The notes under the pieces are model-generated. The model did no database searches and was not told the DNA's origin. It saw only the letters and a program-made list of their open reading frames with translations. A DNA stretch of 61,605 nt from Patescibacteria group bacterium. Its GTDB lineage: Bacteria; Patescibacteriota; Gracilibacteria; JAHISY01. This document shows positions 6,828 to 61,279 of the stretch, piece after piece (the stretch's first letter is position 1; every line of letters starts with the position of its first letter). Both the position numbers and the translations under genes were made by a program. Location: the NCBI GenBank assembly GCA_043797545.1, contig JAZDPN010000064.1:1-61605 (forward strand), in the 5' to 3' direction.

Positions 6828-8126
6828 ATGAATTACTTCAAACGCATTTTTCAGGCTCCCGACCTACGCAAGAAGGTTTTGTTTACGATTTTCGCGCTCG
6901 TCCTCTATCGCGTCGTTTCGCATATCACCGTACCGGGAATCGACCATGCCGCTCTGACCGGACTCTTTGACAAGAATCAGTTGCTGGGCGTTTTCTCACT
7001 CCTGACTGGCGGCAGCTTGAAAAACTTTTCCATCGTCCTGATGGGCCTCACGCCCTACATCAATGCCTCGATCATCGTCCAGCTCATGACCGTTGTAATT
7101 CCCCGGCTCGAAGAATTGTCCAAGGAAGGCGAACAGGGCCGCAATAAAATCAATTCTTATACCCGCTGGCTCGCTTTTCCTTTAGCCTTTTTACAAAGCT
7201 ACGGAATGATTTTGCTTTTGAATAAGTCCGCCGGCGGCAATTTGATCCCCAATATCTCGGATTGGTCCGTCATCCTACCAATCATGCTAATTGTCTCGGC
7301 TGGGACGATTTTCATGATGTGGCTGGGCGAGCTGATGACAGAGAAAGGCATCGGTAATGGTATTTCTGTTTTGATTTTCGCTTCGATTGTTTCCGGTATT
7401 CCTGCCGTCCTGGGCCAAACTCTCGGCATCGCCCAATTCGACCAGTCGAAATTAATTCCTTTTGCCATCCTGCTCGTAGTCACGATCGCCCTCACGATTT
7501 TCGTCGTCCTCGTTACTGAGGGCGCGCGGCAGATTCCGGTGAATTACGGTTCGCGCGCTGGCAGTCGCGGCGCCCAGTCGGCTCTACCGATTCGCATCAA
7601 TCAAGCTGGCATGATTCCGATTATCTTCTCGGTCTCGCTGGTGACTTTCCCGACTATTATCGCTCAGTTCGTCCAAAACTCGAGCAATCCGACTGTCGCG
7701 GCAGCCGCTAAGTTTATTTTGGCGAATCTGAACGGTTCTGCGCCTGGACTGCTTTACATCGTCCTTTACCTTTTCTTCATCATCGCATTTACCTACTTCT
7801 ACGTTTCGATTACTTTTGACCCAGCTAAAATCGCGGAGAATATTCAGAAACGCGGTGGATTCATCCCTGGCATCCGACCAGGCCGCGAGACGGCTGAGTT
7901 TTTGTCCGGCGTCTCGAACCGCTTGAATCTCTGGGGTGGTTTGTTTTTGGGCTTTGTCGCCGTTCTGCCGATCCTTTTGACCAAGTTTTTTGCCAGTCAG
8001 TCTTTCGGCTCAGTTCCGCTTCTGATCTCAGGAGCCGGATTGATCATCGTGGTTGGAGTGGTGCTGGAATTGATTCGCCAGATCAACGCGCAGCTCATCA
8101 TGCACGATTACGATAAATTCAATTAG
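6828..8126 (+). CDS. secY: preprotein translocase subunit SecY
   Basis: 432 aa, 10-TM pattern, conserved SecY blocks (LGVFSLLTGGSL, GELMTEKGIGNGISVLIF). Follows rplO as usual. Confidence 0.95.
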   Translation: MNYFKRIFQAPDLRKKVLFTIFALVLYRVVSHITVPGIDHAALTGLFDKNQLLGVFSLLTGGSLKNFSIVLMGLTPYINASIIVQLMTVVIPRLEELSKEGEQGRNKINSYTRWLAFPLAFLQSYGMILLLNKSAGGNLIPNISDWSVILPIMLIVSAGTIFMMWLGELMTEKGIGNGISVLIFASIVSGIPAVLGQTLGIAQFDQSKLIPFAILLVVTIALTIFVVLVTEGARQIPVNYGSRAGSRGAQSALPIRINQAGMIPIIFSVSLVTFPTIIAQFVQNSSNPTVAAAAKFILANLNGSAPGLLYIVLYLFFIIAFTYFYVSITFDPAKIAENIQKRGGFIPGIRPGRETAEFLSGVSNRLNLWGGLFLGFVAVLPILLTKFFASQSFGSVPLLISGAGLIIVVGVVLELIRQINAQLIMHDYDKFN

Positions 8127-8130
8127 AACA

Positions 8131-8164
8131 GGATTAAGGAGTAAGGAGTAAGAATTAAGTTAAT
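8131..8164. repeat. purine-strand copy of the heptad repeat family (GGATTAAGGAGTAAGGAGTAAGAATTAAG)
   Basis: SD-like TAAGGAG units directly after the secY stop. This is the reverse complement of the CTTAMTY heptads seen at 44225, 57991 and 12801. Confidence 0.6.
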
Positions 8165-8221
8165 ATCGAAACTCCCCCGCCAAATAACGAAAACTCACTC
8201 GAACAGAAGCTCGACGAGATT

Positions 8222-8425
8222 TTGGAAACTTTGAAAAAAATCGAAAAACAAAATCACAAAAATCCTTGGATGAGCGGCGCGAAATTTTTCGTTTTGAATT
8301 TTACGAAAATCGCGGCGTCAATTTTGACACTGATCTTACTCTGGAAAATCTGGGGATTAGTCGACGGGATTGCAGGCGGAATGGATTTTTTACTCGAGAA
8401 AGCTGGCAGCTTAAAGTTCTGGTAA
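8222..8425 (+). CDS. hypothetical small membrane protein (67 aa)
   Basis: TTG ORF with one clear hydrophobic helix (AASILTLILLWKIWGLV). No supporting motif and the start is uncertain. Confidence 0.35.
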   Translation: METLKKIEKQNHKNPWMSGAKFFVLNFTKIAASILTLILLWKIWGLVDGIAGGMDFLLEKAGSLKFW

Positions 8426-8428
8426 AAT
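8420..8428 (+). promoter_or_regulatory. extended -10 (TGGTAAAAT) upstream of the 70-aa ORF
   Basis: Motif lies 20 nt upstream of the ATG at 8449. Confidence 0.35.
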
Positions 8429-8448
8429 ACCATCTTAATTTTTTTAGG

Positions 8449-8661
8449 ATGACTAACTCTAAACCAGAAACTTTCACAGTCGTGACTACTGACGGCCAAT
8501 CTCATGAAGGACAATCCTTAGTAGACGTGGCACGATTTAATCCGGAATTGATCAAAGAAATTCGCGACCAACTCGGAAATATTTTGACTCCTAAACGGTT
8601 GACTGAATTACTTCAAGAAAACCAACCTGCTCTCGCCGCTGCCATTGAAACGTGGAGATAA
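8449..8661 (+). CDS. hypothetical protein (70 aa)
   Basis: ATG-initiated part of ORF 8266..8661. The upstream 61 codons overlap the previous ORF and look non-coding. Confidence 0.45.
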   Translation: MTNSKPETFTVVTTDGQSHEGQSLVDVARFNPELIKEIRDQLGNILTPKRLTELLQENQPALAAAIETWR

Positions 8662-8669
8662 AAGCAATA

Positions 8670-9698
8670 TTACTGCAAAAACTCCGCCTTGTTTTCGTTG
8701 TGCTCAGTCAGCGTCTTGGCGAAATGAATCTGACCTTCCGAATCGTGTAGGTAGTAGTAGAAATCATTCAGCTCCGGGTGCAGCGCAGCCGCAATCGCGC
8801 TCTTGCTCGGCGAGCAAACTGGAGTCGGCGGCAAGTCACGGTATTTGCGCGTGTTGTAAGGCGAGTCGATTGCAAAGTCCTCAGTCGTTAAATTTTTCTT
8901 GTGACCGAGGACATAAAACAAAGTTGAGTCAGCATAGAGTCCCATCCCATTTTCGAGCCGCCGCCAGAGAATATCAGCTACTTTGGGACGATTGGCTTCG
9001 CTCGGCTCTTCCAGCTCGACAATCGAAGCCAGCGTCAAAACCTCGTGCAAAGTTTTGGGAGACTTGGCTGCGTCCCAGTCCAATTCAGCTAAAGTCCGAC
9101 TCATCGCAGCCAGCATTTTTCGAGTTAAATCTTGAACCGAGAAATTACTCGGATCGATTTTGTAAGTCGCCGGGAAAAGATAGCCCTCGAGTGAAGCGAC
9201 TCCCCGCTTGGCTGCGAAGCCTTCTTGGTCGGCGATGCCCGCGCCACCCGACCGGACGAAGTTTTGGAAATCGCCGGATTTGATCAAGCCCAAGCTGACC
9301 AACTTCGCGTCAATCTCTGCCGAATTCCAACCCTCGAGAACAGTCAAAGAAACTTGGGCCGCTTCCCCAGCCTGGAGGATCTGAGCCACAGCCGGGATAG
9401 TCTCACCGCCGCGAAATTGGAAATGACCTGCCTGAATCTTGGCATCCAAATTATTGTCTTTGAGATAATTCAAAAGCGCCCAGTCATCCGCCACCACTCC
9501 GATTGCTTTGAGTCGCGCAGCGACCGCTTTGGGGCTCTCGCCTTTTTCGATTGTGAAATCAATCGAGAGCTGGCTTGGACCGGTTTTTTGCAGGGCAGCC
9601 GGATAATAAACAAATTGGCGGTAGGCGAATACGCCACCCAAACCGACCAAAGCAACCCCGACCAGGATTGGCAAAACTTTTTGAGCCAAGCTTTTCAT
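8670..9698 (-). CDS. mltG: endolytic murein transglycosylase MltG (YceG family)
   Basis: N-terminal TM helix, LysM-like region, and YceG blocks (YLFPATYKI, ASIVELEE, SPYNTRKYRDLPPTPVCSP). Confidence 0.9.
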   Translation of the reverse strand: MKSLAQKVLPILVGVALVGLGGVFAYRQFVYYPAALQKTGPSQLSIDFTIEKGESPKAVAARLKAIGVVADDWALLNYLKDNNLDAKIQAGHFQFRGGETIPAVAQILQAGEAAQVSLTVLEGWNSAEIDAKLVSLGLIKSGDFQNFVRSGGAGIADQEGFAAKRGVASLEGYLFPATYKIDPSNFSVQDLTRKMLAAMSRTLAELDWDAAKSPKTLHEVLTLASIVELEEPSEANRPKVADILWRRLENGMGLYADSTLFYVLGHKKNLTTEDFAIDSPYNTRKYRDLPPTPVCSPSKSAIAAALHPELNDFYYYLHDSEGQIHFAKTLTEHNENKAEFLQ

Positions 9699-9709
9699 TT
9701 GGAGAAAAA

Positions 9710-10033
9710 TTAATTTTGCGCTGGCGCGCCGCCGCTTCCCATCAAACTCTGCATCTCAGCCATTACACCTTTCATCTTTTCAGCCGCAATCTCCTGCGCT
9801 TTTTTAATTCCCTTATTGGCGGCCGAGACAATCGCGGCACCCAATTTTTCCGCATTTTCCGTCGATTTCAGCTCTTCCGGAATCTTGACCGAAATAACTT
9901 CCATTTCGGCATTGACCGTGACGAGCACGCCATCCGTCTCCGCTTCGATGTGAATATTCGCGAGCTCTTTTTTAATTTGCTTCGCTTGCTTCTGCAATTT
10001 GTACATGTCGCGAACCTGACCCAGCATTCCCAT
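9710..10033 (-). CDS. ybaB: nucleoid-associated protein YbaB/EbfC
   Basis: MGMLGQVRDMYKLQKQAKQIKKEL...VTVNAEMEVISVKI is typical of YbaB. Start moved to M32 of the ORF, because the upstream part overlaps the promoter region. Confidence 0.88.
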   Translation of the reverse strand: MGMLGQVRDMYKLQKQAKQIKKELANIHIEAETDGVLVTVNAEMEVISVKIPEELKSTENAEKLGAAIVSAANKGIKKAQEIAAEKMKGVMAEMQSLMGSGGAPAQN

Positions 10034-10056
10034 ATTAAAAAAATTAAAGCGGGACG

Positions 10057-10065
10057 ATTTTAGCA
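10057..10065 (-). promoter_or_regulatory. extended -10 (TGCTAAAAT) for ybaB-mltG
   Basis: Plus strand reads ATTTTAGCA, 23 nt upstream of the ybaB ATG at 10033. Confidence 0.5.
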
Positions 10066-10068
10066 AAT

Positions 10069-10097
10069 TTGCGCCAAGAAAACTTTTCGCGTAAAAT
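10069..10097 (+). promoter_or_regulatory. candidate rpsB promoter (TTGCGC-N17-TAAAAT)
   Basis: Back-to-back with the ybaB promoter. Leaves a ~64-nt 5' UTR before rpsB. Confidence 0.45.
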
Positions 10098-10167
10098 CTC
10101 TTCACTTTTGCGGCGGATCGGGCCACTCCTCCCGAGCTGAAGCCACAAAAAATTTAACCCCAAAAGG

Positions 10168-10878
10168 ATGAATAACTCAGACGACCTACGCCGGCTGCTC
10201 GTGGCCGGACTCCACTTCGGACACAAGACCGCCAAGTGGAATCCCAAAATGAAACCCTATATTTTCGGGGAGAAAAACGGAATTCATATTTTTGATTTAG
10301 AAAAAACAGCGGCCTGCCTCAAGACTGCGATGGATTTTTTGACGAAAACGGCCAGCGAAGGCAAAACGATTTTATTAGTTTCGACCAAACAGCAAACTCT
10401 AGAAAGTCTGCCCGATCTGGCCATCGCGCTGAATTGTCCTTTTGTCACCCAGAAATGGTTTGGCGGACTCTTGACCAACTGGAAAACGACCAAGGAACGT
10501 CTCCGCCAATTGCGCGATCTTAAGAAAGAACGCGACGAAAATAATTTCGCGCGTTTCCTAAAAAAAGAGCGCAACCAAAAAATGAAGCAAATCGAAAAAC
10601 TTGAAAGCTGGCTCTCGGGCATCGAAAAACTGGAAAAAAAGCCTGATGTGCTTTTTGTCCTTGATGCTGTTCGTGACAAAATCGCCCTACGCGAAGCCAA
10701 AAAATGCGGTATTCCGGTCGTCGCCGTTTGCGATTCGAATGCTGATCCGAGCTTAGTCGACTTCCCGATCCCGGCCAATGATGATGCCGTCAAAGCGATC
10801 CAATTGATTTTAAATGAAGTCCACGAAGCGATCGAACGCGGCCAAAAGAGTCCGGCCGAGAAAAAATCGGAAAAATAA
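10168..10878 (+). CDS. rpsB: 30S ribosomal protein S2
   Basis: LLVAGLHFGHKTAKWNPKMKPYIFGEKNGIHIFDL is a typical S2. Confidence 0.95.
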   Translation: MNNSDDLRRLLVAGLHFGHKTAKWNPKMKPYIFGEKNGIHIFDLEKTAACLKTAMDFLTKTASEGKTILLVSTKQQTLESLPDLAIALNCPFVTQKWFGGLLTNWKTTKERLRQLRDLKKERDENNFARFLKKERNQKMKQIEKLESWLSGIEKLEKKPDVLFVLDAVRDKIALREAKKCGIPVVAVCDSNADPSLVDFPIPANDDAVKAIQLILNEVHEAIERGQKSPAEKKSEK

Positions 10879-42843: not shown

Positions 42844-43374
42844 ATGACTAGCAAAACCACTATTTCTGGCAATTCTTATGAAGTTCTCGCGATTCTCGCG
42901 GGCACTTTGCGCGAGAGCGAAGTCAAAAAAGAATTGGAAAAATGGGAAGCTGAGCTCGCCAAGCTTGGTAAGATTTTAGCCAAAATTGTTTGGCCGAATC
43001 GCCCACTCGCTTACAAAGTCGCCAAAAATGAGCGGGGCACTTATTTGATCGTCCATCTCGAGGCAGCTGGTAAAAAAATTGCCGAGCTGGAAAATGCTTT
43101 ACGGCTCGACCCCAAAGTCATCCGTCATCTCATCGCCCGCACACCGAAGCAGTATGTTTGGCGTGATTACAGCGAGGAAGATCTTGAGCACGATTTCACG
43201 AAATTAGAGAGCGCTAAGCCTGCTCCCGAGCCGCGTTTTGTGAAGAAAAAAGGCAGCCGAACAAAACCGGAAAATGCCAAACCAGCCGCAAAGAAAGTTG
43301 AAAAAGAAGCCGAGCCGACTGCCAACGCCGGCGAAATCGACAAAAAACTCGATGATATCCTGGCTGATTTGTAA
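42844..43374 (+). CDS. rpsF: 30S ribosomal protein S6 with ~70-aa charged C-terminal extension
   Basis: YEVLAILAGTL...WPNRPLAYKVAKNERGTYLIVHLEA is the S6 core. At 176 aa it is longer than the usual ~100-130. Confidence 0.9.
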   Translation: MTSKTTISGNSYEVLAILAGTLRESEVKKELEKWEAELAKLGKILAKIVWPNRPLAYKVAKNERGTYLIVHLEAAGKKIAELENALRLDPKVIRHLIARTPKQYVWRDYSEEDLEHDFTKLESAKPAPEPRFVKKKGSRTKPENAKPAAKKVEKEAEPTANAGEIDKKLDDILADL

Positions 43375-52691: not shown

Positions 52692-52829
52692 AAATTTTGG
52701 CCGCCAGTTAAATTTATAGTGAACAAAAAATTTGTATCGTGGCTTTTTCAAGCTGAAAAGTCTGAATAACTGCAAAATTTACAAATATTATTTTTATGGC
52801 AAAAACAGCGAATCCGGTCGAGCGAGAAC

Positions 52830-52838
52830 TGCTAAAAT
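52830..52838 (+). promoter_or_regulatory. extended -10 (TGCTAAAAT) 7 nt before the TTG at 52846 (leaderless geometry)
   Basis: CTGCTAAAAT-CAGCTTA-TTG. Confidence 0.5.
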
Positions 52839-52845
52839 CAGCTTA

Positions 52846-53802
52846 TTGAATCCCAAATTTTCGATCGGTCTCGTTTTATTTGAAACGAAATTTTTGGAGC
52901 AAGCGCTCCCCTCGCTCTTCGCACAAAAATTTGAGTCAGTCGAATTTCTAATCCGCGATCACTCGTCCGATTTCGTCGCAAGTAAATTGATCGAAAAAAA
53001 TTTTCCGGAAATTGCGAAAAAAGCACAGATTTTTCGCGGAGAAAATCTCTGGCATTCGGGCGGAATGAATTTTTTGATCGGAAAATCCCGGGGTGAATTT
53101 TTCGTCGCGGCGTCGACCGATATACTTTACGAGCCGAATTTTTTGAAAAAAGCGGCGAAAATTTTGCACGATCCAGCGAACAAAAAAGTCGGCGTGCTCG
53201 GCGGAAAATTGAAAAAATGGAATGCAGAGAAAAACGCGCGACTCGAAATCCTCGACTCCGCTGGGATCGGCGCGACCCGCGCGGGGCGTTTTTTCGAAAT
53301 CGGCGGTGGACAAAATTCGCGGAAATTTTCCACGGAAAAAATCGTGTTCGGGATTTCCGCAGCGCTCGCGATTTATCGGCGCGCCGCACTAGAAGAAGTC
53401 GCCGTCGACGGGAAATTTTTCGACGAAAAATTACATTTCAAAAATGATGTCGACCTCGCGTTTCGCTTGAATTGGCTCGGCTGGTCGGCGAAATTTTCGC
53501 CAGAGATCGTGGCGTGGCACGCGCGCGGACTCGGTGATGCGAAGTCGCGCCGAAACCGCTCTGCGTTCGAACGCAAAAATTCTATGTTCGGACAATTCGT
53601 CGTGATCGCAAAAAATTGGGACGAAAACTTTTCGCTCCGCACAAAAATTGCTACGAAAATTCGGCAGCTCGCGCTCCGGATTTTTGCATTTTTCGCCGAA
53701 CCCGAAAAAAACGGAATTCGAAAATTTGACGCAATTCAGGGAGAATTGAAACCAACACCGCGCAAAATCTCAGCCGCGGAAGTTGAAAAACTTTTTACAT
53801 AA
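52846..53802 (+). CDS. family 2 glycosyltransferase
   Basis: FSIGLVLFETKFLEQALPSLFAQKF..VEFLIRDHSSD is a GT-A N-terminus, with a DxD-like STD. TTG start chosen from the promoter geometry. The track ORF is open from 52732. Confidence 0.75.
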   Translation: MNPKFSIGLVLFETKFLEQALPSLFAQKFESVEFLIRDHSSDFVASKLIEKNFPEIAKKAQIFRGENLWHSGGMNFLIGKSRGEFFVAASTDILYEPNFLKKAAKILHDPANKKVGVLGGKLKKWNAEKNARLEILDSAGIGATRAGRFFEIGGGQNSRKFSTEKIVFGISAALAIYRRAALEEVAVDGKFFDEKLHFKNDVDLAFRLNWLGWSAKFSPEIVAWHARGLGDAKSRRNRSAFERKNSMFGQFVVIAKNWDENFSLRTKIATKIRQLALRIFAFFAEPEKNGIRKFDAIQGELKPTPRKISAAEVEKLFT

Positions 53803-53868: not shown

Positions 53869-54684
53869 GTGAAGCTATCTATCATCATTCTCGACTTCGA
53901 AAAATCGACGCGCGTACTCGCAAATGTCGCCGCGCTTTTGGCACAAAAAACAGATTTTGATTTTGAAATCATCGTCGCGGTAAACGCTGCAAATGAAGCC
54001 AAAAAAGCGAAATTCGCTGGACTTGTGAATGAACCGAAAATCAAATTTATTTTCAACGCGGAGAATCTCGGCTACCCGCGCGGAATCAATTCCGCGGTGC
54101 AAAAATCGAGCGGTGAAATTCTCGCGATCGTGAATCCGGATTTGATTTGTCCCGACGAAAATTCGCTCGCGAAACTCGTCGCGAAGATCGAGTCAGACGC
54201 GAAAATCGGGGTGCTCGCACCGCGACAAATTCGTGAAACGGACGGCCAAACCGAAATGACCGCGCGTGCTTTCCCGCAGCTTTTGAATCAAATTGCGCGG
54301 CGAACTTGGCTGCGCAAAATTCCCGGAATCCGTGAGCGCGTCGCACATGATGAAATGCAACATCTCGATCTGGCGCGCGAACAACAGGTCGACTGGTTGC
54401 AGTCGAGCTTTTGGATTGTGCGAAGAAATTTTTGGGACGAGCTCGGCGGACTCGACGAACGCTTTTTTCTTTTTATGTCCGATCCGGATTTTTGTCGCCG
54501 CGTCTGGGATGCTGGAAAAATAGTGCTTTTTTGGCCTGAAGTCATCGTCCGCGCGGACGGACTGCGCGCAAGCGCGGGCGGATTTTTGGCGTTTTTCAAA
54601 AAGTGGACGCTGCGTCAACATCTCCGCGACGCGCTGAAATATTTTGGGAAATGGCGCGGAAAGAAAAATCCACGCGATCAGTAA
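53869..54684 (+). CDS. family 2 glycosyltransferase
   Basis: LSIIILDFEKS...EIIVAVNAANE...GYPRGINSAVQKSSGEILAIVNPDL is a GT-A fold. GTG start. Confidence 0.8.
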   Translation: MKLSIIILDFEKSTRVLANVAALLAQKTDFDFEIIVAVNAANEAKKAKFAGLVNEPKIKFIFNAENLGYPRGINSAVQKSSGEILAIVNPDLICPDENSLAKLVAKIESDAKIGVLAPRQIRETDGQTEMTARAFPQLLNQIARRTWLRKIPGIRERVAHDEMQHLDLAREQQVDWLQSSFWIVRRNFWDELGGLDERFFLFMSDPDFCRRVWDAGKIVLFWPEVIVRADGLRASAGGFLAFFKKWTLRQHLRDALKYFGKWRGKKNPRDQ

Positions 54685-57035
54685 AACTCGGGCAGAAGTT
54701 TCGCCGGGTGAATTTCGGGAATTTTCTCGAGCGTCGGCAGATCGCTGATCTTGATTTTGCCCAAATATAGTTTTTTGAGATCGCCGCCGTCCGCGACAAA
54801 TTTTTGGATTTTTTGCAGCCCGGAAAAATAAATCGCGTCTTTCGTGAAGCCGCCCGGTCCGGCAGTCGCAGTCAAACCGCGTTTCACTTTCACCGCAGTT
54901 TTCCACGCGCGCTCGTCGTCGAAACCGTATTTTTTGACCAGCGCGAAAATTTGGGAAAAAGATTTTTCGGCGGCAGCAGCGACCGCGAGACAGCTCGCGA
55001 TCGGCCAGAATTCTTTTTCATGCGCGGACTGTAAAACTTTATTTTGGTTGAAAATCGCGAGTCCTTCTTCGATCTCGAGATAATTCCCCGTTCCCCGCGC
55101 GAAGATTTCGTACTTTTGCGCGCGACCGTTTTCCGTGCGGAGAATGTGCGTCTCGACCTCGTGCGCGATCGTCGCGCGCAGTCGCTCGGGCGACCACTTC
55201 GCGCCGGCACGCACGAAAAGTGTCCCCGATTTTCCAGCAAGCGCGTCGGAGACGAGATCAGTTTTCAAAACAACTTTCCAATTTTTGAGACCATATTTGG
55301 CAAAAGTTTTTTGGAATTCTTCCGCAGCGGATTTCGCGTCGAGATCGATTTTTTCGGCCGAAAATTTTTTCGGTTTCGCAGCCAAAAGTTTCTCTGCTGT
55401 CGCAATAATTTCCGGACTCGGGAAACCGTAAAGTTGGCGCGATTTCTCGGCAAAATCCGGCTTGCCGATTGATTCGAGCAGCTCGATTTTGCGCCGCATT
55501 TCCAATTTTTTGCCGCGGAAAAGTGCACCGAGCGGCGACTCTGGAATTTCGATCGCGGCGAGCTCAGCAAGTAATTTTTGCGGATCGAAGGTTAATTTTT
55601 TGTAATGAAAAACTGGATCATAATTTTTGAGCGCGGAAAACTTTTTCTTTTCGGCCAGCAGATTGATCGGCTTGAGAAAATGCAAAAGCCGAATTTTTTT
55701 GTCGAGCACGACGAGCTTCCGATCAAGCACGGCGAAATCGACCGGCCGTGCGGTCGGCTTTTTTTCTTTCGGCAAAATCGGTTCCTCTTTCGCGACCGGG
55801 TTGATAAGGAAATTGCTGAGGTCGCGCCGCCCGAGAATGATTTTGTAATTCGCGTCCGACAAATCGGTTTTTTCGGCGACAGTCGTGAGTCGCTCGTCCG
55901 CGAGGATGATTTTGAGATGGACATTTTTCGAATTTTTTTCGACCGGCGCGAGCTGCAATTTTTCGGCGAGCTCGGCGTCAATCGCGGTCGTCGCGTGCGT
56001 CGGATCGAGCTCGACTTTCACCCGGTGGATCGTATTATCTTTGAGCAAAATCTCGGCCGGTTCGATGAAATCAACAACTGTTTTTTTCGGATATTTTTTC
56101 TTTTTCTGCGTTTTGCCGAAAAGCTCTTTGCCGAGTTTTACGCCTTTTTCCGGCGAATCGACTTTGAGTCCGCGAACTCTTTCTAATCTTTTTTTGAGCG
56201 GCGCGAGATTCGCGATCTGGACCATCAAACCCGCGCGCGCATTCACTTCGAGTAATAATGGTCCGTCTTTTTGATCGACAACAAGATCCGCTGCAAGATA
56301 GCCGAGGTTCGTGTGCAACTGCGCCGCGCTCGCGATTTTGAGAATTTCGTCGAAGTCCGGAATGAGATGTCCAGCGGTCGGAATCCCGCCCGGCAGCTCG
56401 TCGAGCAATTGATTGAAACGGACGGCGTGCGTAGTTTTGCCCGAAGCGAGATCGATCCCGAGTCCGATCCCGCCGAGATGGACATTCGCTTTCCCGCCCG
56501 ACTCGGGCGTCGGCACACGCAACATCGCCATCACCGGAATGAGATTGTGAACGATGACGCGCACGTCCGGCAAACCTTCGACTGCGAGTCCGGAAATGAA
56601 TTCGATCGAATCGACGCGACTTTCGAAAAACGCAATGTCGGGCAAACTCGCGATCGAAAATTCGCCGTCGAGAATGTCTTCGATGTGCTCGCGCAACTCC
56701 GCCTCGGTCAATTTCCCACCGCCGACTTTTTGCCAGACGCCGTCAAGAATTTTTTCCTTCACGACGACAATTCCCTCCCCGCCAAATCCGGCATTCGGTT
56801 TCAAAACGAACGAATCGGGCAAAATTTCAAAATCGAACCTGTCGAATTCTTCGCGATTGCGAATCGTGGCAATCAGCCTAGGGACGGGCACGCCGCGGGT
56901 CGAGAGAAATTGTTTGGTCGACAATTTTGAGTCAGCCATTTTGATCGCCTTTTTACGATTAAAAGGCCGCAAATATTCCAAATTGCGGGAATTAATCCCG
57001 AGGATCCCGTGATTTTTGAAAAACGGAAAAACCAT
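54678..57035 (-). CDS. fusion protein: RimK-type ATP-grasp ligase + DUF785/RimB-like domain + DUF1704 (MATCAP-like, HExxxH) domain
   Basis: aa 1-295: GILGINSRNLEYL, KPNAGFGGEGI, LLEVNARAG. aa ~320-435: ...YKIILGRRDLSNFLINP. aa ~450-785: IAHEVETHILRTENG, EIEEGLAIFNQ, LYLGKI. The start overlaps the leuD stop (TAATG). Confidence 0.85.
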   Translation of the reverse strand: MVFPFFKNHGILGINSRNLEYLRPFNRKKAIKMADSKLSTKQFLSTRGVPVPRLIATIRNREEFDRFDFEILPDSFVLKPNAGFGGEGIVVVKEKILDGVWQKVGGGKLTEAELREHIEDILDGEFSIASLPDIAFFESRVDSIEFISGLAVEGLPDVRVIVHNLIPVMAMLRVPTPESGGKANVHLGGIGLGIDLASGKTTHAVRFNQLLDELPGGIPTAGHLIPDFDEILKIASAAQLHTNLGYLAADLVVDQKDGPLLLEVNARAGLMVQIANLAPLKKRLERVRGLKVDSPEKGVKLGKELFGKTQKKKKYPKKTVVDFIEPAEILLKDNTIHRVKVELDPTHATTAIDAELAEKLQLAPVEKNSKNVHLKIILADERLTTVAEKTDLSDANYKIILGRRDLSNFLINPVAKEEPILPKEKKPTARPVDFAVLDRKLVVLDKKIRLLHFLKPINLLAEKKKFSALKNYDPVFHYKKLTFDPQKLLAELAAIEIPESPLGALFRGKKLEMRRKIELLESIGKPDFAEKSRQLYGFPSPEIIATAEKLLAAKPKKFSAEKIDLDAKSAAEEFQKTFAKYGLKNWKVVLKTDLVSDALAGKSGTLFVRAGAKWSPERLRATIAHEVETHILRTENGRAQKYEIFARGTGNYLEIEEGLAIFNQNKVLQSAHEKEFWPIASCLAVAAAAEKSFSQIFALVKKYGFDDERAWKTAVKVKRGLTATAGPGGFTKDAIYFSGLQKIQKFVADGGDLKKLYLGKIKISDLPTLEKIPEIHPAKLLPEFY

Positions 57036-57514
57036 TAAATTTGATTCAAAAGACCACCCGCCAAAACAATTTTTTGCAAAAATTCTGGCAACGGCTCAAG
57101 CGCAAATTCAGTTTTTTGGGTCAAATTTTTAATTTTCGAATTGGTTAAATCAATCTCGATCGCGTCATTTTCGGCAAATTTTGCGGTCGCGTTTTCGAGG
57201 ACGAAAGTCGGCAAACCAAAATTGACCGAGTTGCGGAAAAAAATCCGCGCGAACGAATCAGCTACAACGGCACGGACACCCGCACCGACGAGCGCCCAAA
57301 CTGCGTGCTCGCGGGAACTTCCGCAACCGAAATTTTGACCCGCAATCACAATCGGATTTTGGGCCGATTTTAATTTTTCTCCCCCAATCGCCTCGAGAGC
57401 ATGAGCCGCCAATTCGGTCTGATCTGAGCTGGTCAGATAGCAAGCCGGAATAATCAAGTCGGTATCGATATCGTCCCGGGCAAAAATTTGCGCCGAGCCA
57501 GAGATGTTTTTCAT
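57035..57514 (-). CDS. leuD: 3-isopropylmalate dehydratase small subunit (archaeal-type LeuD, 159 aa)
   Basis: DDIDTDLIIPACYL, IVIAGQNFGCGSSREHAVWAL, ADSFARIFFRNSVNFGLP. No leuC is adjacent. Confidence 0.88.
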   Translation of the reverse strand: MKNISGSAQIFARDDIDTDLIIPACYLTSSDQTELAAHALEAIGGEKLKSAQNPIVIAGQNFGCGSSREHAVWALVGAGVRAVVADSFARIFFRNSVNFGLPTFVLENATAKFAENDAIEIDLTNSKIKNLTQKTEFALEPLPEFLQKIVLAGGLLNQI

Positions 57515-57529: not shown

Positions 57530-57548
57530 AAAAGCTTGAATAATTGAT

Positions 57549-57577
57549 TTGCTCGGCTGAAAAAAGTCATTTAAAAT
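57549..57577 (+). promoter_or_regulatory. promoter TTGCTC-N17-TAAAAT for small membrane gene, leu leader and leuA
   Basis: Hexamers with 17-nt spacing, 23 nt upstream of the ATG at 57601. Confidence 0.5.
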
Positions 57578-57600
57578 TCAGACACTTTAATCCCCTCAAA

Positions 57601-57849
57601 ATGAGCACTCCATTTAAAGTCATGAAGGCGGTATACGTTTACCTTTCCGCGTTCGTTGGACTTCTCGTCGTCGCAGCTGGGCTTTATAGCATGCTTGAAT
57701 ATCTCTTAAGCATTCTTTTCATTGATTCAGCTTTTGACGCGATTTATGTGATTACTCCTATCACTCGTATTGTTGTCGGTCTCTTCATCATGGTTCCACA
57801 CTGGGCAATCGGTCACCACTTCCACACTCTCGAATCGAAAAAAAGATAA
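57601..57849 (+). CDS. small 2-TM membrane protein (82 aa)
   Basis: MSTPFKVMKAVYVYLSAFVGLLVVAAGLY... has two hydrophobic helices. ATG at M20 of the track ORF. Confidence 0.55.
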   Translation: MSTPFKVMKAVYVYLSAFVGLLVVAAGLYSMLEYLLSILFIDSAFDAIYVITPITRIVVGLFIMVPHWAIGHHFHTLESKKR

Positions 57850-58018: not shown

Positions 58019-59551
58019 ATGACTGAAATCGTAAAAATCTTCGACACGACATTGCGCGACGGCGAACAATGCCCCGGCGCGAGTTTGAACCACGATGAAA
58101 AACTGCAAATCGCGGCTCAGCTCGAGAAACTCGGTGTCGATGTGATCGAAGCGGGATTTCCGATCGCATCGCCCGACGATTTTCGCGCAGTGAAGGAAAT
58201 CGCGAAATTGGTCGAAAAATCGACGGTTTGCGGGCTTTCGCGCGCCATCACGAAAGATATTCAAGCGGCGGCGGACGCAATCGCGCCGGCGAAGAAAAAG
58301 CGCATTCACACTTTTCTTGCGACGAGCGACATGCACTTGAAATACAAATTGAAGATGAGCCGAACTGAGGCTCTAGAACGAATCGCCGAAATGATTAAAT
58401 TCGCGAAAAGTTTGGTGCGCGATGTGGAATTCAGTCCGGAAGATGCGAGCCGCAGCGATCCGAAATTCTTACTGAAAGCGCTCGCCGTCGCAGTCAAAAA
58501 TGGCGCGAAAACCTTGAATATTCCGGACACAGTCGGCTACGCTACACCGACAGAATTCGGGAAATTTATCAAAATGATTCGCCAAAATGTGCCGAAAGAT
58601 GTCGTGATTTCGGTGCATTGTCACGACGATCTGGGCTTGGCTGTAGCGAATTCTTTGGCGGCGGTCGAGAACGGCGCGCGGCAGGTCGAGTGCACAGTGA
58701 ACGGCATCGGCGAGCGCGCAGGCAATACGAGTCTCGAGGAAGTCGTAATGGCACTCAAAACGCGCAAAGATTTTTTCCGGAATTTGCGGACGAATATTCA
58801 GCCGAAAGAAATTTATCGGACGAGTCGGCTCGTTTCGAATTTGACTGGTTTCGTCGTCCCGCCGAACAAAGCGATCGTCGGCTCAAACGCTTTCGCGCAC
58901 GAAAGCGGCATTCACCAACACGGCATCATCGCGAAACGCGAAACTTACGAAATCATGAAAGCCGAGGATGTCGGCGTGGAGAAAAATAAATTGGTTTTGG
59001 GGAAACATTCCGGCCGGGCAGCGCTGATTCAGAGAATGGTCGAGCTCGGTTTCAAATTGACGCAAAACGAAGTCGACAAAACTTTCGAGCGCTTCAAAAT
59101 TTTGGCCGACAAAAAGAAAGAAATTTTCGACGAAGATCTCGAGGCTTTGGTTGTGAATGAAATTTCGGAAGCCGCGGCCGAATGGCATGTCGAATCGGTC
59201 GAAGTCGTAGCTGGCAATCGTCGGAAACCGACCGCCGAAATTGCTCTGCGCAATTCGCAAGGTAAGATTTTCAAAAAGAAATCTGGCGGGACTGGACCGG
59301 TCGACGCAGCGTATTCCGCGGTGAACGCGATCGTCGGCGAAAAAGTGAAATTGCTCGAATTTCGGATGGACGCGGTGAGCGAAGGCATCGACGCGCAAGC
59401 GACAGTCACGGTGAAAGTCGAAACAGAGACCGGGCGGATTTACACTGGCAAGGGTAGCCACACCGACATCGTCGTCGCGAGTGTCAAAAGTTATCTGAAT
59501 GCGCTGAATAAAATCGTCGCGGGGAAGGAGCGAATAAAAGTTATTTTGTAA
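58019..59551 (+). CDS. leuA: 2-isopropylmalate synthase
   Basis: IFDTTLRDGEQCPGASL, HCHDDLGLAVANSLAAV, and a C-terminal LeuA regulatory domain. Confidence 0.95.
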   Translation: MTEIVKIFDTTLRDGEQCPGASLNHDEKLQIAAQLEKLGVDVIEAGFPIASPDDFRAVKEIAKLVEKSTVCGLSRAITKDIQAAADAIAPAKKKRIHTFLATSDMHLKYKLKMSRTEALERIAEMIKFAKSLVRDVEFSPEDASRSDPKFLLKALAVAVKNGAKTLNIPDTVGYATPTEFGKFIKMIRQNVPKDVVISVHCHDDLGLAVANSLAAVENGARQVECTVNGIGERAGNTSLEEVVMALKTRKDFFRNLRTNIQPKEIYRTSRLVSNLTGFVVPPNKAIVGSNAFAHESGIHQHGIIAKRETYEIMKAEDVGVEKNKLVLGKHSGRAALIQRMVELGFKLTQNEVDKTFERFKILADKKKEIFDEDLEALVVNEISEAAAEWHVESVEVVAGNRRKPTAEIALRNSQGKIFKKKSGGTGPVDAAYSAVNAIVGEKVKLLEFRMDAVSEGIDAQATVTVKVETETGRIYTGKGSHTDIVVASVKSYLNALNKIVAGKERIKVIL

Positions 59552-59681: not shown

Positions 59682-59810
59682 ATGACTGAATTGGAAGAGA
59701 TCGATCTGATGACTGGCAAGGCGCTCAAGCTGCTAACCAAGGTTTTGCTACTCGCTGGAGCTTTCACTTTATTTGGTCTACTAGCGATGAAACTTTTAAA
59801 AGTTTTTTAG
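59682..59810 (+). CDS. hypothetical tail-anchored small membrane peptide (42 aa)
   Basis: MTELEEIDLMTGKALKLLTKVLLLAGAFTLFGLLAMKLLKVF. Preceded by TTGACC-N15-TATACT (59632-59658). Its 3' end overlaps the convergent fumarase gene by 4 nt. Confidence 0.35.
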   Translation: MTELEEIDLMTGKALKLLTKVLLLAGAFTLFGLLAMKLLKVF

Positions 59811-61279
59811 ATTTTACCGCCCTGCGCATCCATCCCGACGATCGCGAGCAAATTTTCAACCTCCAATTCCCACATCGCCTCGGGCATGCCGAACTCGTCG
59901 AGAAAATCGACCCCGCGAACTTCGCGAATCGCGTCCGCGTAAAAAGCCGCCGCGCCGCCGATCGCGTGGCAATAAACCGCGCCGAATTTTTGGAGTGCTT
60001 TTTGGGTCGCCTCTCCCATTCCGCCTTTGCCGATCAAAATGCGAGCACCAGTTTTGGCGAGAAATTGCGGCGTGAATGCATCGAGCCGCGCACTCGTCGT
60101 CGGTCCCGCCGCGACAATTTTCCAAATTTCCTTTTCGGAAAATTTGCCTCGAGCTTGCTTGTAGTGAGCTTGTTGAACCTGTCGAGAGGCGACTTTTTGG
60201 CGAATCGCGATCGGACCGGCGTGAAAAATACCGAGATTTTGCAAATTTTTCGGCAATTTATTTTTGAGTGCGAACTGGTGCACCTGATCGCGCGCGGTGA
60301 AAATACAACCAGAAACCGCTACCAAATCGCCCACCCGTAATTCGCGAACTTCTTTTTCCGAAGTCGGAAGCGTTATTTTTCGCGCATTTTTCGGAGTGAA
60401 ATCCGTCGGGAGCATTCTTTTCGAAAAATCATTCGCGAGAATTTTGCCCGCGGAATCGACTACGATTTTCGCGCGGCGCGTCGCCCAGCACGAGTACGCG
60501 AGCGTCACGAAAAAGCTCGCGGGGTGGCGCGGCAGCTTAGCAATTTTGCAATCGAGCAGCGTCGTCCTCCCGCCGAGCCCGCCCGCGCCGATCCGCGTCG
60601 AATTAATTTTGCGGAGAATCGTCGCTTCCATTTTCGCCAAAACCGGATTGGAATTTGGTGTTCCGATTTTGGTAAGCAGGTTCTTCTTTGCCAATTTGAA
60701 AGCCTCGGCTCGGTCGCCGCCGACGACGATCGACGCGACTCCCGGCGGGCAGCCTTTCGCGACGGAATTTTCGAGCAACTCACGCGCAGCTTTTTCGATC
60801 CCGGCGAGATCGCGTCCGGCAAGCCCGAATTTTGTCTCCGCGGGAAGTGAAATTTGCGCGGACACATTTTCGCTCCCGCCGCCTTTCAGCAAAACTTGAA
60901 TTTTGCTGATCGAACTCGCGGAGATTTCAAATTCGATTTTCGGGCGATTCCCAAGATTTTTGCCGGAAATTGGATCGACAGAATTCGGGCGGAGCAATCC
61001 GACTTTCGTCGCTTTTTTCGTCGCGGCGATAATTGCCTTTCCAATTTTCTCCCAATTTTTTGGCAAGGATTTCACAAAAAAAGTGATCGCCCCGGTGTCT
61101 TGGCAAATCGGACGCGCCGATTTTTTCGCGCGAGCGATATTTTCGAGAATGATCTCGAATGCGATTTTTCCGCGGGCATCGGACTCGCGACTTTTCGCGG
61201 AAATGAGCGACTCGACGACATCCGCTGGCAAATTCGTCGCGGCAGCGTGAATGAGTTCGAAAATCGAGTCAGTAATCAC
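59807..61279 (-). CDS. class I (Fe-S) fumarate hydratase / tartrate dehydratase-type hydro-lyase, fused alpha+beta
   Basis: Alpha part has PICQDTGAITFFVK and KGGGSENVS. Beta part has VSGCIFTARDQVH, GPTTSARLD and LIGKGGMG. GTG start. Confidence 0.85.
   Translation of the reverse strand: MITDSIFELIHAAATNLPADVVESLISAKSRESDARGKIAFEIILENIARAKKSARPICQDTGAITFFVKSLPKNWEKIGKAIIAATKKATKVGLLRPNSVDPISGKNLGNRPKIEFEISASSISKIQVLLKGGGSENVSAQISLPAETKFGLAGRDLAGIEKAARELLENSVAKGCPPGVASIVVGGDRAEAFKLAKKNLLTKIGTPNSNPVLAKMEATILRKINSTRIGAGGLGGRTTLLDCKIAKLPRHPASFFVTLAYSCWATRRAKIVVDSAGKILANDFSKRMLPTDFTPKNARKITLPTSEKEVRELRVGDLVAVSGCIFTARDQVHQFALKNKLPKNLQNLGIFHAGPIAIRQKVASRQVQQAHYKQARGKFSEKEIWKIVAAGPTTSARLDAFTPQFLAKTGARILIGKGGMGEATQKALQKFGAVYCHAIGGAAAFYADAIREVRGVDFLDEFGMPEAMWELEVENLLAIVGMDAQGGKI

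Follow-up and report, generated by a model that had tools for sequence, protein, structure and literature searches.

An RloC-type ATP-grasp ligase, a degenerate retropepsin-like barrel and a MATCAP-type carboxypeptidase in one Patescibacteria protein: a candidate writer and eraser of C-terminal tails

Introduction

Two bacterial systems in which a ligase works together with a retropepsin, RimK-RimB and RloA-RloB-RloC, have been described (PMC11957051). RimK polyglutamylates ribosomal protein S6 at its C-terminus, and RimB, like RloA, is a polyglutamate-cleaving enzyme; neither RloC nor RloA has a known substrate, and deletion of rloB or rloC rescues a Pseudomonas mutant lacking all three RloA proteases (PMC11957051). 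The widespread Rlo systems influence tolerance to antibiotics and the formation of biofilms in Pseudomonas, and protein polyglutamylation in bacteria has been reported only for S6 and for the Legionella effector SdeA (PMC11957051). Enzymes of the MATCAP family take off Tyr and Glu at the C-terminus of acidic tails and trim polyglutamate chains, and their third metal ligand lies in an EEG motif (PMC10499314). Here we analyse a gene that joins an RloC-type ligase, a retropepsin-like module and a MATCAP-type carboxypeptidase in one polypeptide of 785 amino acids (aa). It lies on the 61,605-nucleotide (nt) contig JAZDPN010000064.1 (assembly GCA_043797545.1) of an uncultured Patescibacteria group bacterium (Gracilibacteria; JAHISY01); this whole stretch of DNA is referred to below as the window.

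A preliminary description of the window, made from the DNA letters, had proposed that the protein may be a writer and eraser of C-terminal tails, and had stated that no characterised example of the architecture was known. The latter statement has to be narrowed, since databases already contain the fusion, and RimK-RimB and RloA-RloB-RloC are known ligase-plus-retropepsin systems (PMC11957051). NCBI automatically names such proteins 'tyrosine/phenylalanine carboxypeptidase domain-containing protein' or 'DUF1704 domain-containing protein', and JGI records of the fusion protein carry both TIGRFAM names. We found no paper on the fusion architecture in the searchable full-text literature on DUF1704, bacterial MATCAP and RloB/RloC. 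We favour the view that the protein is a Patescibacteria variant of the RimK-RimB and RloA-RloB-RloC systems, a bifunctional cytoplasmic enzyme that would set the length of a tail.

Results

One uninterrupted gene encodes three modules

The whole gene is located as follows (the open reading frame (ORF) list, the AlphaFold model and the homologues support it):

54678..57035, minus strand (stop codon included): whole gene, 785-aa three-domain protein

The ORF starts with ATG and is uninterrupted, and encodes, in this order, an ATP-grasp ligase, a retropepsin-like barrel and a MATCAP/DUF1704 metallocarboxypeptidase. Pfam, NCBIfam, PDB sequence matches, a fold search and the existence of two-domain intermediates all bear out the earlier view that three modules share a single ORF. 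A full-length AlphaFold model, built on 112 homologues, had a pLDDT of 90.5, with each domain individually confident and disordered linkers at aa 310-316 and aa 415-427. In the ranking of PDB folds for this model MATCAP came first, followed by RimK and LysX/ArgX. No signal peptide or membrane segment was present in the model.

The C-terminal domain is a MATCAP-type metallocarboxypeptidase by family, fold and motifs

54687..55724, minus strand: MATCAP/DUF1704 (QEGLA-type) metallocarboxypeptidase domain, aa 438-783 (PF08014, TIGR02421 and a match to MATCAP structure 7z5g)
55146..55163, minus strand: H625-E-V-E-T-H630, HExxxH metal-binding/catalytic motif (aligns with HEIGTH of MATCAP; coordinates checked)
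55056..55070, minus strand: E656-E657-G-L-A660, EEG/QEGLA motif, which presumably provides the third metal ligand (opposite EEGLA of MATCAP in the alignment)

Residues 470-772 matched PF08014 (MATCAP, formerly DUF1704) with E=1e-55 and 189.7 bits against a cut-off of 27; the NCBIfam model TIGR02421 ('QEGLA') matched aa 438-783 with 206 bits, under its cut-off of 339. Sequence-profile (E=4e-26) and fold (E=1e-11) searches of the PDB both ranked human MATCAP/KIAA0895L (7z5g) first. It was the only solved relative found by sequence, and is about 23% identical to the window protein over the fold-search alignments (~350 columns). We counted residue invariance and motifs in an alignment of 112 three-domain homologues: H625, E626, H630, E657, G658, A660 and the K718-R-G720 motif were invariant in 112/112. 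Thus, the HEVETH and EIEEGLA motifs and the kinship to DUF1704/MATCAP, noted in the preliminary description, are upheld by PF08014 and by the alignment with MATCAP. We predict a carboxypeptidase activity on acidic C-terminal tails for this domain.

The N-terminal domain is an ATP-grasp ligase of the RloC type

56172..56987, minus strand: ATP-grasp ligase domain, RloC/TIGR02291 type, aa 17-288 (PF14397, TIGR02291, identity to a Legionella RloC-type protein, fold match)
56235..56249, minus strand: E263-V-N265-A-R267, Mg/ATP-binding 'ExN' motif (invariant 112/112; coordinates checked)

The match to Pfam family PF14397 (ATPgrasp_ST) covered aa 17-288 with E=1e-51 and 176 bits against a cut-off of 31.4. 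TIGR02291 ('alpha-L-glutamate ligase-like', NCBIfam) matched aa 7-309 with 252 bits, under its equivalog cut-off of 314. Since the Pfam threshold was passed and the NCBIfam one missed, the ligase is a member of the Pfam family but not of the NCBIfam equivalog. The RimK models fitted the window protein worse: TIGR00768 gave 49.6 bits, far under its cut-off of 143.4, and PF08443 (RimK) gave 15.8 bits against a threshold of 21. Of the earlier label 'RimK-type ATP-grasp', therefore, the ATP-grasp ligase stands, and RimK proper is replaced by the RloC/TIGR02291 type.

By fold, the best ATP-grasp matches of the ligase domain were RimK and LysX/ArgX (Foldseek). These ATP-grasp families are said to have been defined by Iyer et al. 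in 2009. The ligase motifs align by eye with ...VVKLVEGTQGIG..., ...SNLHRGG..., ...GVDIL... and ...MEVNASPGL... of RimK, residues whose functional roles follow the UniProt annotation. Pairwise similarity to RimK was low, and a rough alignment left the first ~90 RimK residues without a counterpart in the window protein. Residues K37, K41, K79, the Gly-rich loop, R159, N184, D250, E263, N265 and R267 were invariant in 112/112. The intactness of both outer active sites is thus seen in catalytic residues that do not vary and in motifs at their expected positions.

The ligase domain is 39% identical to a plasmid protein of Legionella adelaidensis annotated 'alpha-L-glutamate ligase-like'. In the Legionella operon a DUF785 protease gene is followed by a Transglut_i_TM+7TM_transglut gene, with the ATPgrasp_ST ligase gene last, which is the arrangement of Pseudomonas rloA-rloB-rloC (PMC11957051). 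An ATP-dependent amino-acid ligase activity is predicted for the N-terminal domain and, judged by family, the amino acid added would most likely be alpha-linked glutamate. Klebsiella CfmP, a fimbria-modifying ATP-grasp protein, was considered as a relevant relative and rejected, as it is TupA-like and belongs to a different family.

The middle domain is a degenerate retropepsin-like barrel

55797..56081, minus strand: degenerate retropepsin-like beta-barrel, DUF785/RimB/RloA type, aa 319-413 (Foldseek, transitive homology)
55998..56006, minus strand: D344-P-T346, site equivalent to retropepsin D-T/S-G (aligns with DTG of L090; coordinates checked)

The middle segment (aa ~319-413) gave no Pfam match even at E<=10, so that the PF05618 threshold was not reached, and a profile search of PDB sequences with it gave no match. 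Comparisons by hhalign with one Legionella DUF785 protein and with 120 close Legionella homologues were in register but statistically weak, with a probability of 11% in the profile-profile comparison. The identity of this domain comes, instead, from the fold search and from two-domain intermediates. A separate model of aa 296-452 (pLDDT 90.2) had the Pseudomonas proteases RloA2 (9g59) and RloA (9g58) and the DUF785 protein Lpg0085 (2pma) as its top Foldseek matches, with E values of 3e-5 to 9e-5; Ddi1 and retroviral proteases ranked below them. A two-domain relative aligned with aa 11-416 of the window protein at 36% identity (BLASTP, E=2e-93), and the corresponding region of this relative passes PF05618 (39.4 bits against 27). 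In addition, three-domain homologues that have DTG or DSG gave weak aspartyl-protease Pfam matches.

The DPT of the window protein lies opposite the DTG of the two-domain L090 protein. Among the three-domain proteins D[TS]G is kept in 16/112, and in 0/24 sequences of the window's clade; the first residue of the site is Asp in 66/112 and Asn in 41/112. The middle domain of the window protein also lacks a segment of ~45-50 residues that is present in two-domain relatives. The earlier suggestion that the barrel may be non-catalytic fits these findings, and the middle domain is probably vestigial and non-catalytic.

The fusion recurs across Patescibacteria

We took the best 120 database homologues of the fusion protein and the best 80 genome loci of its gene (one genome per GTDB species). 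With a single exception (P0038, 513 aa, no MATCAP match), the database homologues had both ATP-grasp and MATCAP matches at lengths of 754-832 aa, and all 80 loci encoded near-full-length proteins of the same architecture as the window protein. The fusion is thus conserved in related genomes, being common to the best 80 loci and to 119 of the best 120 homologues. Near-full-length homologues with 42-77% identity were found in >100 assemblies of Peregrinibacteria, Peribacteria, 'Gracilibacteria' and other Patescibacteria, deposited by many submitting groups. We rejected an assembly chimera as the origin of the fusion, because the architecture recurs across these >100 independent Peregrinibacteria/Patescibacteria assemblies.

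A 7TM partner with a glutamate end precedes most fusion genes

We compared gene neighbourhoods at 82 loci. The window's clade in this analysis comprises the window and 7 close relatives (58-77% identity; 8 loci). A short way upstream of the fusion gene, on the same strand, a gene for a protein with a PKD domain and a seven-helix (7TM) region was found in 70/82 loci, in 68 of them in the adjacent position. The 12 loci without the 7TM gene were 7 of the window's clade and 5 with too little upstream DNA; in the more distant relatives with enough upstream DNA it preceded the fusion gene in 70/70. The gap between the two genes, measured in 65 loci, was <=15 nt, or the genes overlapped, in 44, and was >60 nt in 18. 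Every other recurrent neighbour of the 70 partner-linked loci was on the opposite strand.

Besides a signal peptide and a PKD domain, the partner (~512 aa) carries a 7TM_transglut domain (PF14402, E=3e-26), and is thus RloB-like but without the transglutaminase-like domain. In all partners (70/70) a conserved ...GLR..E..RFRE..RH. segment is followed by a terminal EE, EEE or EEEE; the L002 partner, for example, has ...GLRVLERIRFREILRHIEE as its last ~25 residues. Two to five terminal glutamates are present in 119 of 120 database homologues of the partner, and the remaining one is a truncated fragment. The codons of the terminal glutamates vary synonymously (GAA 118, GAG 40). A Shine-Dalgarno sequence might have produced the EE tail as a side effect; we rejected this explanation, given the mostly GAA codons and the 18 loci with >60-nt gaps; the synonymous variation and these gaps argue for selection at the protein level.

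The tail of the partner is rich in Arg and Lys, and in the published topology the ectodomain of RloB lies outside (PMC11957051); the C-terminal tail of the partner should, therefore, be cytoplasmic. We also noted a third class of 7TM_transglut proteins, which ends in -QE (...DSQE, ...NAQE; P0436, P0443, P0461, P0467, P0477 and P0489).

Glutamate-ended partners co-occur with the MATCAP domain

Ligases of 430-509 aa with ATP-grasp and RimB-like domains and without MATCAP occur in other uncultured, probably Patescibacteria, lineages (L087, L089, L090 and 40 metagenome loci). They, too, have a PKD+7TM gene upstream, sometimes in a YebC-RuvC neighbourhood. These two-domain ligases keep D[TS]G in 42/43, as compared with 16/112 of the three-domain ligases.

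A profile of the 7TM region, run against 1.8 billion representative proteins, found 1655 relatives, and ~45% of the best 150 end in EE. In look-ups of genomic context, three non-EE partners preceded two-domain ligases without MATCAP, and three EE partners preceded MATCAP-bearing three-domain ligases, one of these in a YebC-RuvC neighbourhood. A metagenome scan was seeded with non-EE 7TM partners (an alignment of 7 sequences), and the look-ups and the scan together gave a second set of 47 non-redundant partner/ligase pairs. The counts of partner/ligase pairs were:

EE-or-longer partner tail: 73 with MATCAP, 0 without MATCAP
Non-EE partner tail: 1 with MATCAP (L103), 43 without MATCAP

The association between the EE end and MATCAP has a Fisher p=2e-31, a value that ignores shared ancestry. 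The exceptional pair, L103 (AMFJ01026683.1), consists of an 800-aa MATCAP ligase with an intact DTGA and a 7TM partner that ends ...RKKHRA; it is the only such pair and, judged by these features, may be an evolutionary intermediate.

The co-occurrence of EE tails with MATCAP gives strong comparative support to the earlier idea of a writer and eraser of C-terminal tails, an activity which we still infer from sequence. A partner that ends in EE also resembles detyrosinated alpha-tubulin, and we considered that the ligase might add a single non-glutamate residue (e.g. an aromatic one) to -EE, to be removed again by the MATCAP domain in a cycle like that of TTL and MATCAP. The closest solved relative of the C-terminal domain is indeed a tyrosine carboxypeptidase acting on -EEY (human MATCAP), the NCBI name mentions tyrosine and phenylalanine, and there are weak TTL-family Pfam matches in two relatives. 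However, the nearest relatives of the ligase are glutamate ligases of the RloC/RimK type, enzymes of the MATCAP family take off glutamates as well, and the NCBI name is automatic. Moreover, the encoded tails have two to five Glu, as expected if their length in Glu units matters. A tyrosination-like cycle is, therefore, very unlikely in our view.

Proposed mechanism

In the reading that we favour, a ligase-plus-protease enzyme that sets tail length, the RloC-type ATP-grasp domain would use ATP to add amino acids to the C-terminus of a protein or peptide, acting as the writer, and the MATCAP-type domain would act as the eraser, removing residues singly from the C-terminus that the ligase has extended. 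The likely target in most family members would be the cytoplasmic tail ...RFRE..RH.EE of the co-transcribed RloB-like PKD+7TM protein. MATCAP enzymes trim acidic tails and RimK extends S6; most simply, the ligase would extend this tail and the MATCAP domain would trim it. In the ancestral Patescibacteria form, a 7TM gene would have stood ahead of a gene whose product joined a ligase to an active RimB-like protease. One lineage would have gained MATCAP, with decay of the aspartic protease (in its motif and by ~45-50 residues) and fixation of the partner's end as EE or longer. What is left of the middle domain probably serves as a scaffold or helps to bind acidic tails.

It is possible, and we suggest it tentatively, that Peregrinibacteria have a reversible 'tail code', in which one enzyme lengthens and shortens the -EE end of the 7TM protein and so sets the activity of this membrane protein. 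If true, such a code would be a prokaryotic counterpart, and possibly an antecedent, of tubulin glutamylation and tyrosination and of their reversal by MATCAP, and it would provide the first concrete candidate substrate for Rlo-type systems.

Several observations weigh against the favoured reading. The proposal of a tail as the target comes from the partner-linked clade, and for the window's clade, which has no adjacent 7TM partner, it is conjectural. A profile search (E<=10) found no 7TM_transglut gene (PF14402) in the window or in the 7 related loci, and no ORF ending in EE was found in the window or in the flanks of the 7 clade loci, apart from one spurious antisense ORF; no candidate substrate is encoded near the fusion gene in the window. 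Classical Legionella RloB has no EE end and terminates ...AKARS. A crude hydropathy count of the partner gives 6-7 helices, which leaves the side of the tail unsettled. The association of EE with MATCAP may largely reflect one evolutionary event, and L103, with MATCAP, a non-EE partner and DTG, makes it less than absolute. For the enzyme itself, the full-length model leaves the packing of the domains uncertain (pTM 0.52), the sequence does not reveal which amino acid is added, and the Pfam label of PF14397 points to cell-surface polysaccharide synthesis.

The lack of an adjacent 7TM partner in the window's clade would suit another explanation, in which the enzyme builds and shortens a free polymer of amino acids, for instance poly-alpha-glutamate or some short acidic peptide, and the 7TM partner, where present, exports or senses it. 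The EE end of the partner would then not be the acceptor; it would mimic a primer, offer a docking site or act as a regulatory pseudo-substrate. RimK also synthesises free poly-alpha-glutamate, and free polyglutamate is among the options discussed for the Pseudomonas Rlo system (PMC11957051). Pseudomonas RloA is periplasmic and RloC cytoplasmic, which implies that some product crosses the membrane, possibly via RloB. The L087 locus has a second RimK-like ATP-grasp ligase and two Mur-ligase-like genes. Yet, a free polymer by itself leaves unexplained the invariant EE end of the partner and its match to the presence of the carboxypeptidase, and a carboxypeptidase directed at the polymer made by its own polypeptide looks futile unless tightly regulated. 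We regard this explanation as unlikely, though worth keeping in mind. As to L087 itself, the additional genes lie downstream of the two-domain ligase (7509-10793), and the cluster hints at a larger peptide- or polymer-building set in some lineages.

Neighbours of the fusion gene in the window

57035..57514, minus strand: LeuD-like gene (Aconitase_C, 159 aa), upstream neighbour
52732-53802 and 53869-54684, plus strand: two GT2 glycosyltransferase genes (PF00535), convergent with the fusion gene

The two GT2 genes had been described as flanking the fusion gene; both are in fact on its 3' side and convergent with it, and the second shares 7 nt with its 3' end. The translational coupling to leuD holds, as the stop codon of the leuD-like gene and the ATG of the fusion gene overlap by 1 nt in TAATG. 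The order leuA-like, DUF5671, leuD-like and fusion gene was seen in 7/8 loci of the window's clade, and two convergent GT2 genes with valS downstream in 5-6/8; neither the GT2 genes nor the leuD linkage occurred in the 70 other-clade loci. Neither GT2 nor leuD is, therefore, a conserved neighbour of the family as a whole. As they are clade-limited, and the GT2 genes convergent, we rejected them as family-wide partners and read this neighbourhood as synteny within a narrow lineage.

The LeuD-like gene adjoins genes for a LeuA-like synthase and a class-I fumarate-hydratase-like protein (58019-59551, plus strand; 59807-61279, minus strand), a grouping conserved in related genomes. No leuC or leuB homologue was found in the window. 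The DUF5671 gene (57544-57849, plus strand), for a small membrane protein, is found upstream of the leuD-fusion pair; it is on the other strand and points away from the pair. Its position is conserved in 7/8 loci, and the protein ends in a His-rich ...GHHFH... segment.

The GT2 genes, which adjoin the gene in the window and in 5-6/8 clade loci, raise the possibility that the protein decorates a surface polysaccharide or glycoconjugate with amino acids alongside the GT2 enzymes, its peptidase editing the decoration. The Pfam name of PF14397, 'sugar-transfer associated ATP-grasp', and the envelope phenotypes of Pseudomonas Rlo mutants would agree with this. However, the GT2 genes are not co-transcribed with the fusion gene, being convergent, and they are missing from the 70 other-clade loci, where the 7TM gene alone is co-oriented. 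In addition, the fusion model has no signal peptide or membrane segment, and a MATCAP-type carboxypeptidase acts on peptide C-termini. Glycan decoration appears highly improbable.

The window also encodes a homologue of ribosomal protein S6 (42844-43374, plus strand; 176 aa) with a Lys/Ala/Pro/Glu-rich C-terminal extension of ~45 residues. The fusion enzyme could act on S6 as RimK does, an analogy that had been drawn in the preliminary description, or could serve a carrier-protein pathway of the LysX/LysW kind together with its LeuA/LeuD-like neighbours. Among ATP-grasp folds, RimK and LysX/ArgX match best, and the leuD-like coupling with a nearby leuA-like gene is seen in 7/8 clade loci. E. 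coli S6, like the 7TM partners, ends in -EE, but the window S6 ends ...KKLDDILADL, without terminal glutamates. We took an acidic C-terminus of S6 as a proxy for an acceptor, which is not a stated requirement of RimK, and the ...DDILADL end is thus weak evidence against S6, on which we set it aside as the acceptor. Furthermore, the RimK family model is far under its cut-off, the neighbours examined include no LysW-like carrier or other lysine/arginine pathway genes, leuC and leuB are absent from the window, and the other 70 loci lack the linkage to leuD. We give very little credence to either variant of this explanation.

Discussion

The fusion was already catalogued under automatic names; new here are the linkage to an EE-ended 7TM partner and the co-occurrence of the EE end with MATCAP. 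The family would place a writer and an eraser in a single polypeptide, and most of its members point to a testable acceptor, the -EE end of the 7TM protein. It also appears to record the replacement of one eraser by another, with the arrival of a MATCAP-type metallopeptidase and the decay of the retropepsin. The presence of an enzyme family that trims tubulin tails beside a bacterial ATP-grasp ligase bears on the origin of the enzymes of the tubulin code.

Among known systems, RloA-RloB-RloC shares with the fusion its ligase family (ATPgrasp_ST/TIGR02291), a DUF785/PF05618 retropepsin, which is the best structural match of the middle domain, and a 7TM_transglut partner, found directly upstream of the fusion in most of its relatives. 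The window protein itself has an RloC-type ligase and a DUF785-type module in one polypeptide. It differs in that ligase and retropepsin are fused and, by prediction, cytoplasmic, whereas RloA is secreted; in that the retropepsin lacks DTG and ~45-50 residues and MATCAP is added; in that the partner of the fusion has PKD instead of the inactive transglutaminase domain and ends in EE; and in that the window has no partner gene nearby.

RimK-RimB resembles the fusion in having an ATP-grasp ligase and a cytoplasmic retropepsin-like protein with an add-and-remove logic, and in the -EE end that E. coli S6 shares with the 7TM partners. The putative eraser here is, in contrast, a metallopeptidase, and the S6 of the window lacks terminal glutamates.

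The two-domain ATP-grasp plus RimB-like proteins are close relatives (36% identity over aa 11-416) and have a PKD+7TM gene upstream, but they are without MATCAP, have an intact DTGA and a full-length DUF785 domain, and their partners are not EE-ended.

The proteobacterial 'flavohemoglobin expression-modulating QEGLA motif proteins' of TIGR02421 share the DUF1704/MATCAP domain and have links of their own, independent of the fusion, to glutamate-related enzymes. On a Vibrio plasmid (L084, 5113-7104) DUF1704 is fused to an N-formylglutamate-amidohydrolase-like N-terminal domain, and on a Sinorhizobium megaplasmid (L085, 4403-8204) the DUF1704 gene lies, as part of an operon, between an N-formylglutamate-amidohydrolase-like gene and a GshB-like ATP-grasp gene; these proteins are about 630-660 aa long. 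The window protein, by comparison, falls short of the TIGR02421 cut-off (206 against 339 bits) and has other fusion partners and another ATP-grasp family, and the two proteobacterial loci examined showed no 7TM partner. Finally, MATCAP/TMCP1 and TMCP2 (KIAA0895L and KIAA0895) share with the window protein the Pfam family, the fold and the HExxxH and EEG(LA) motifs, while the window protein is bacterial, has no microtubule substrate and is fused to its presumed writer ligase.

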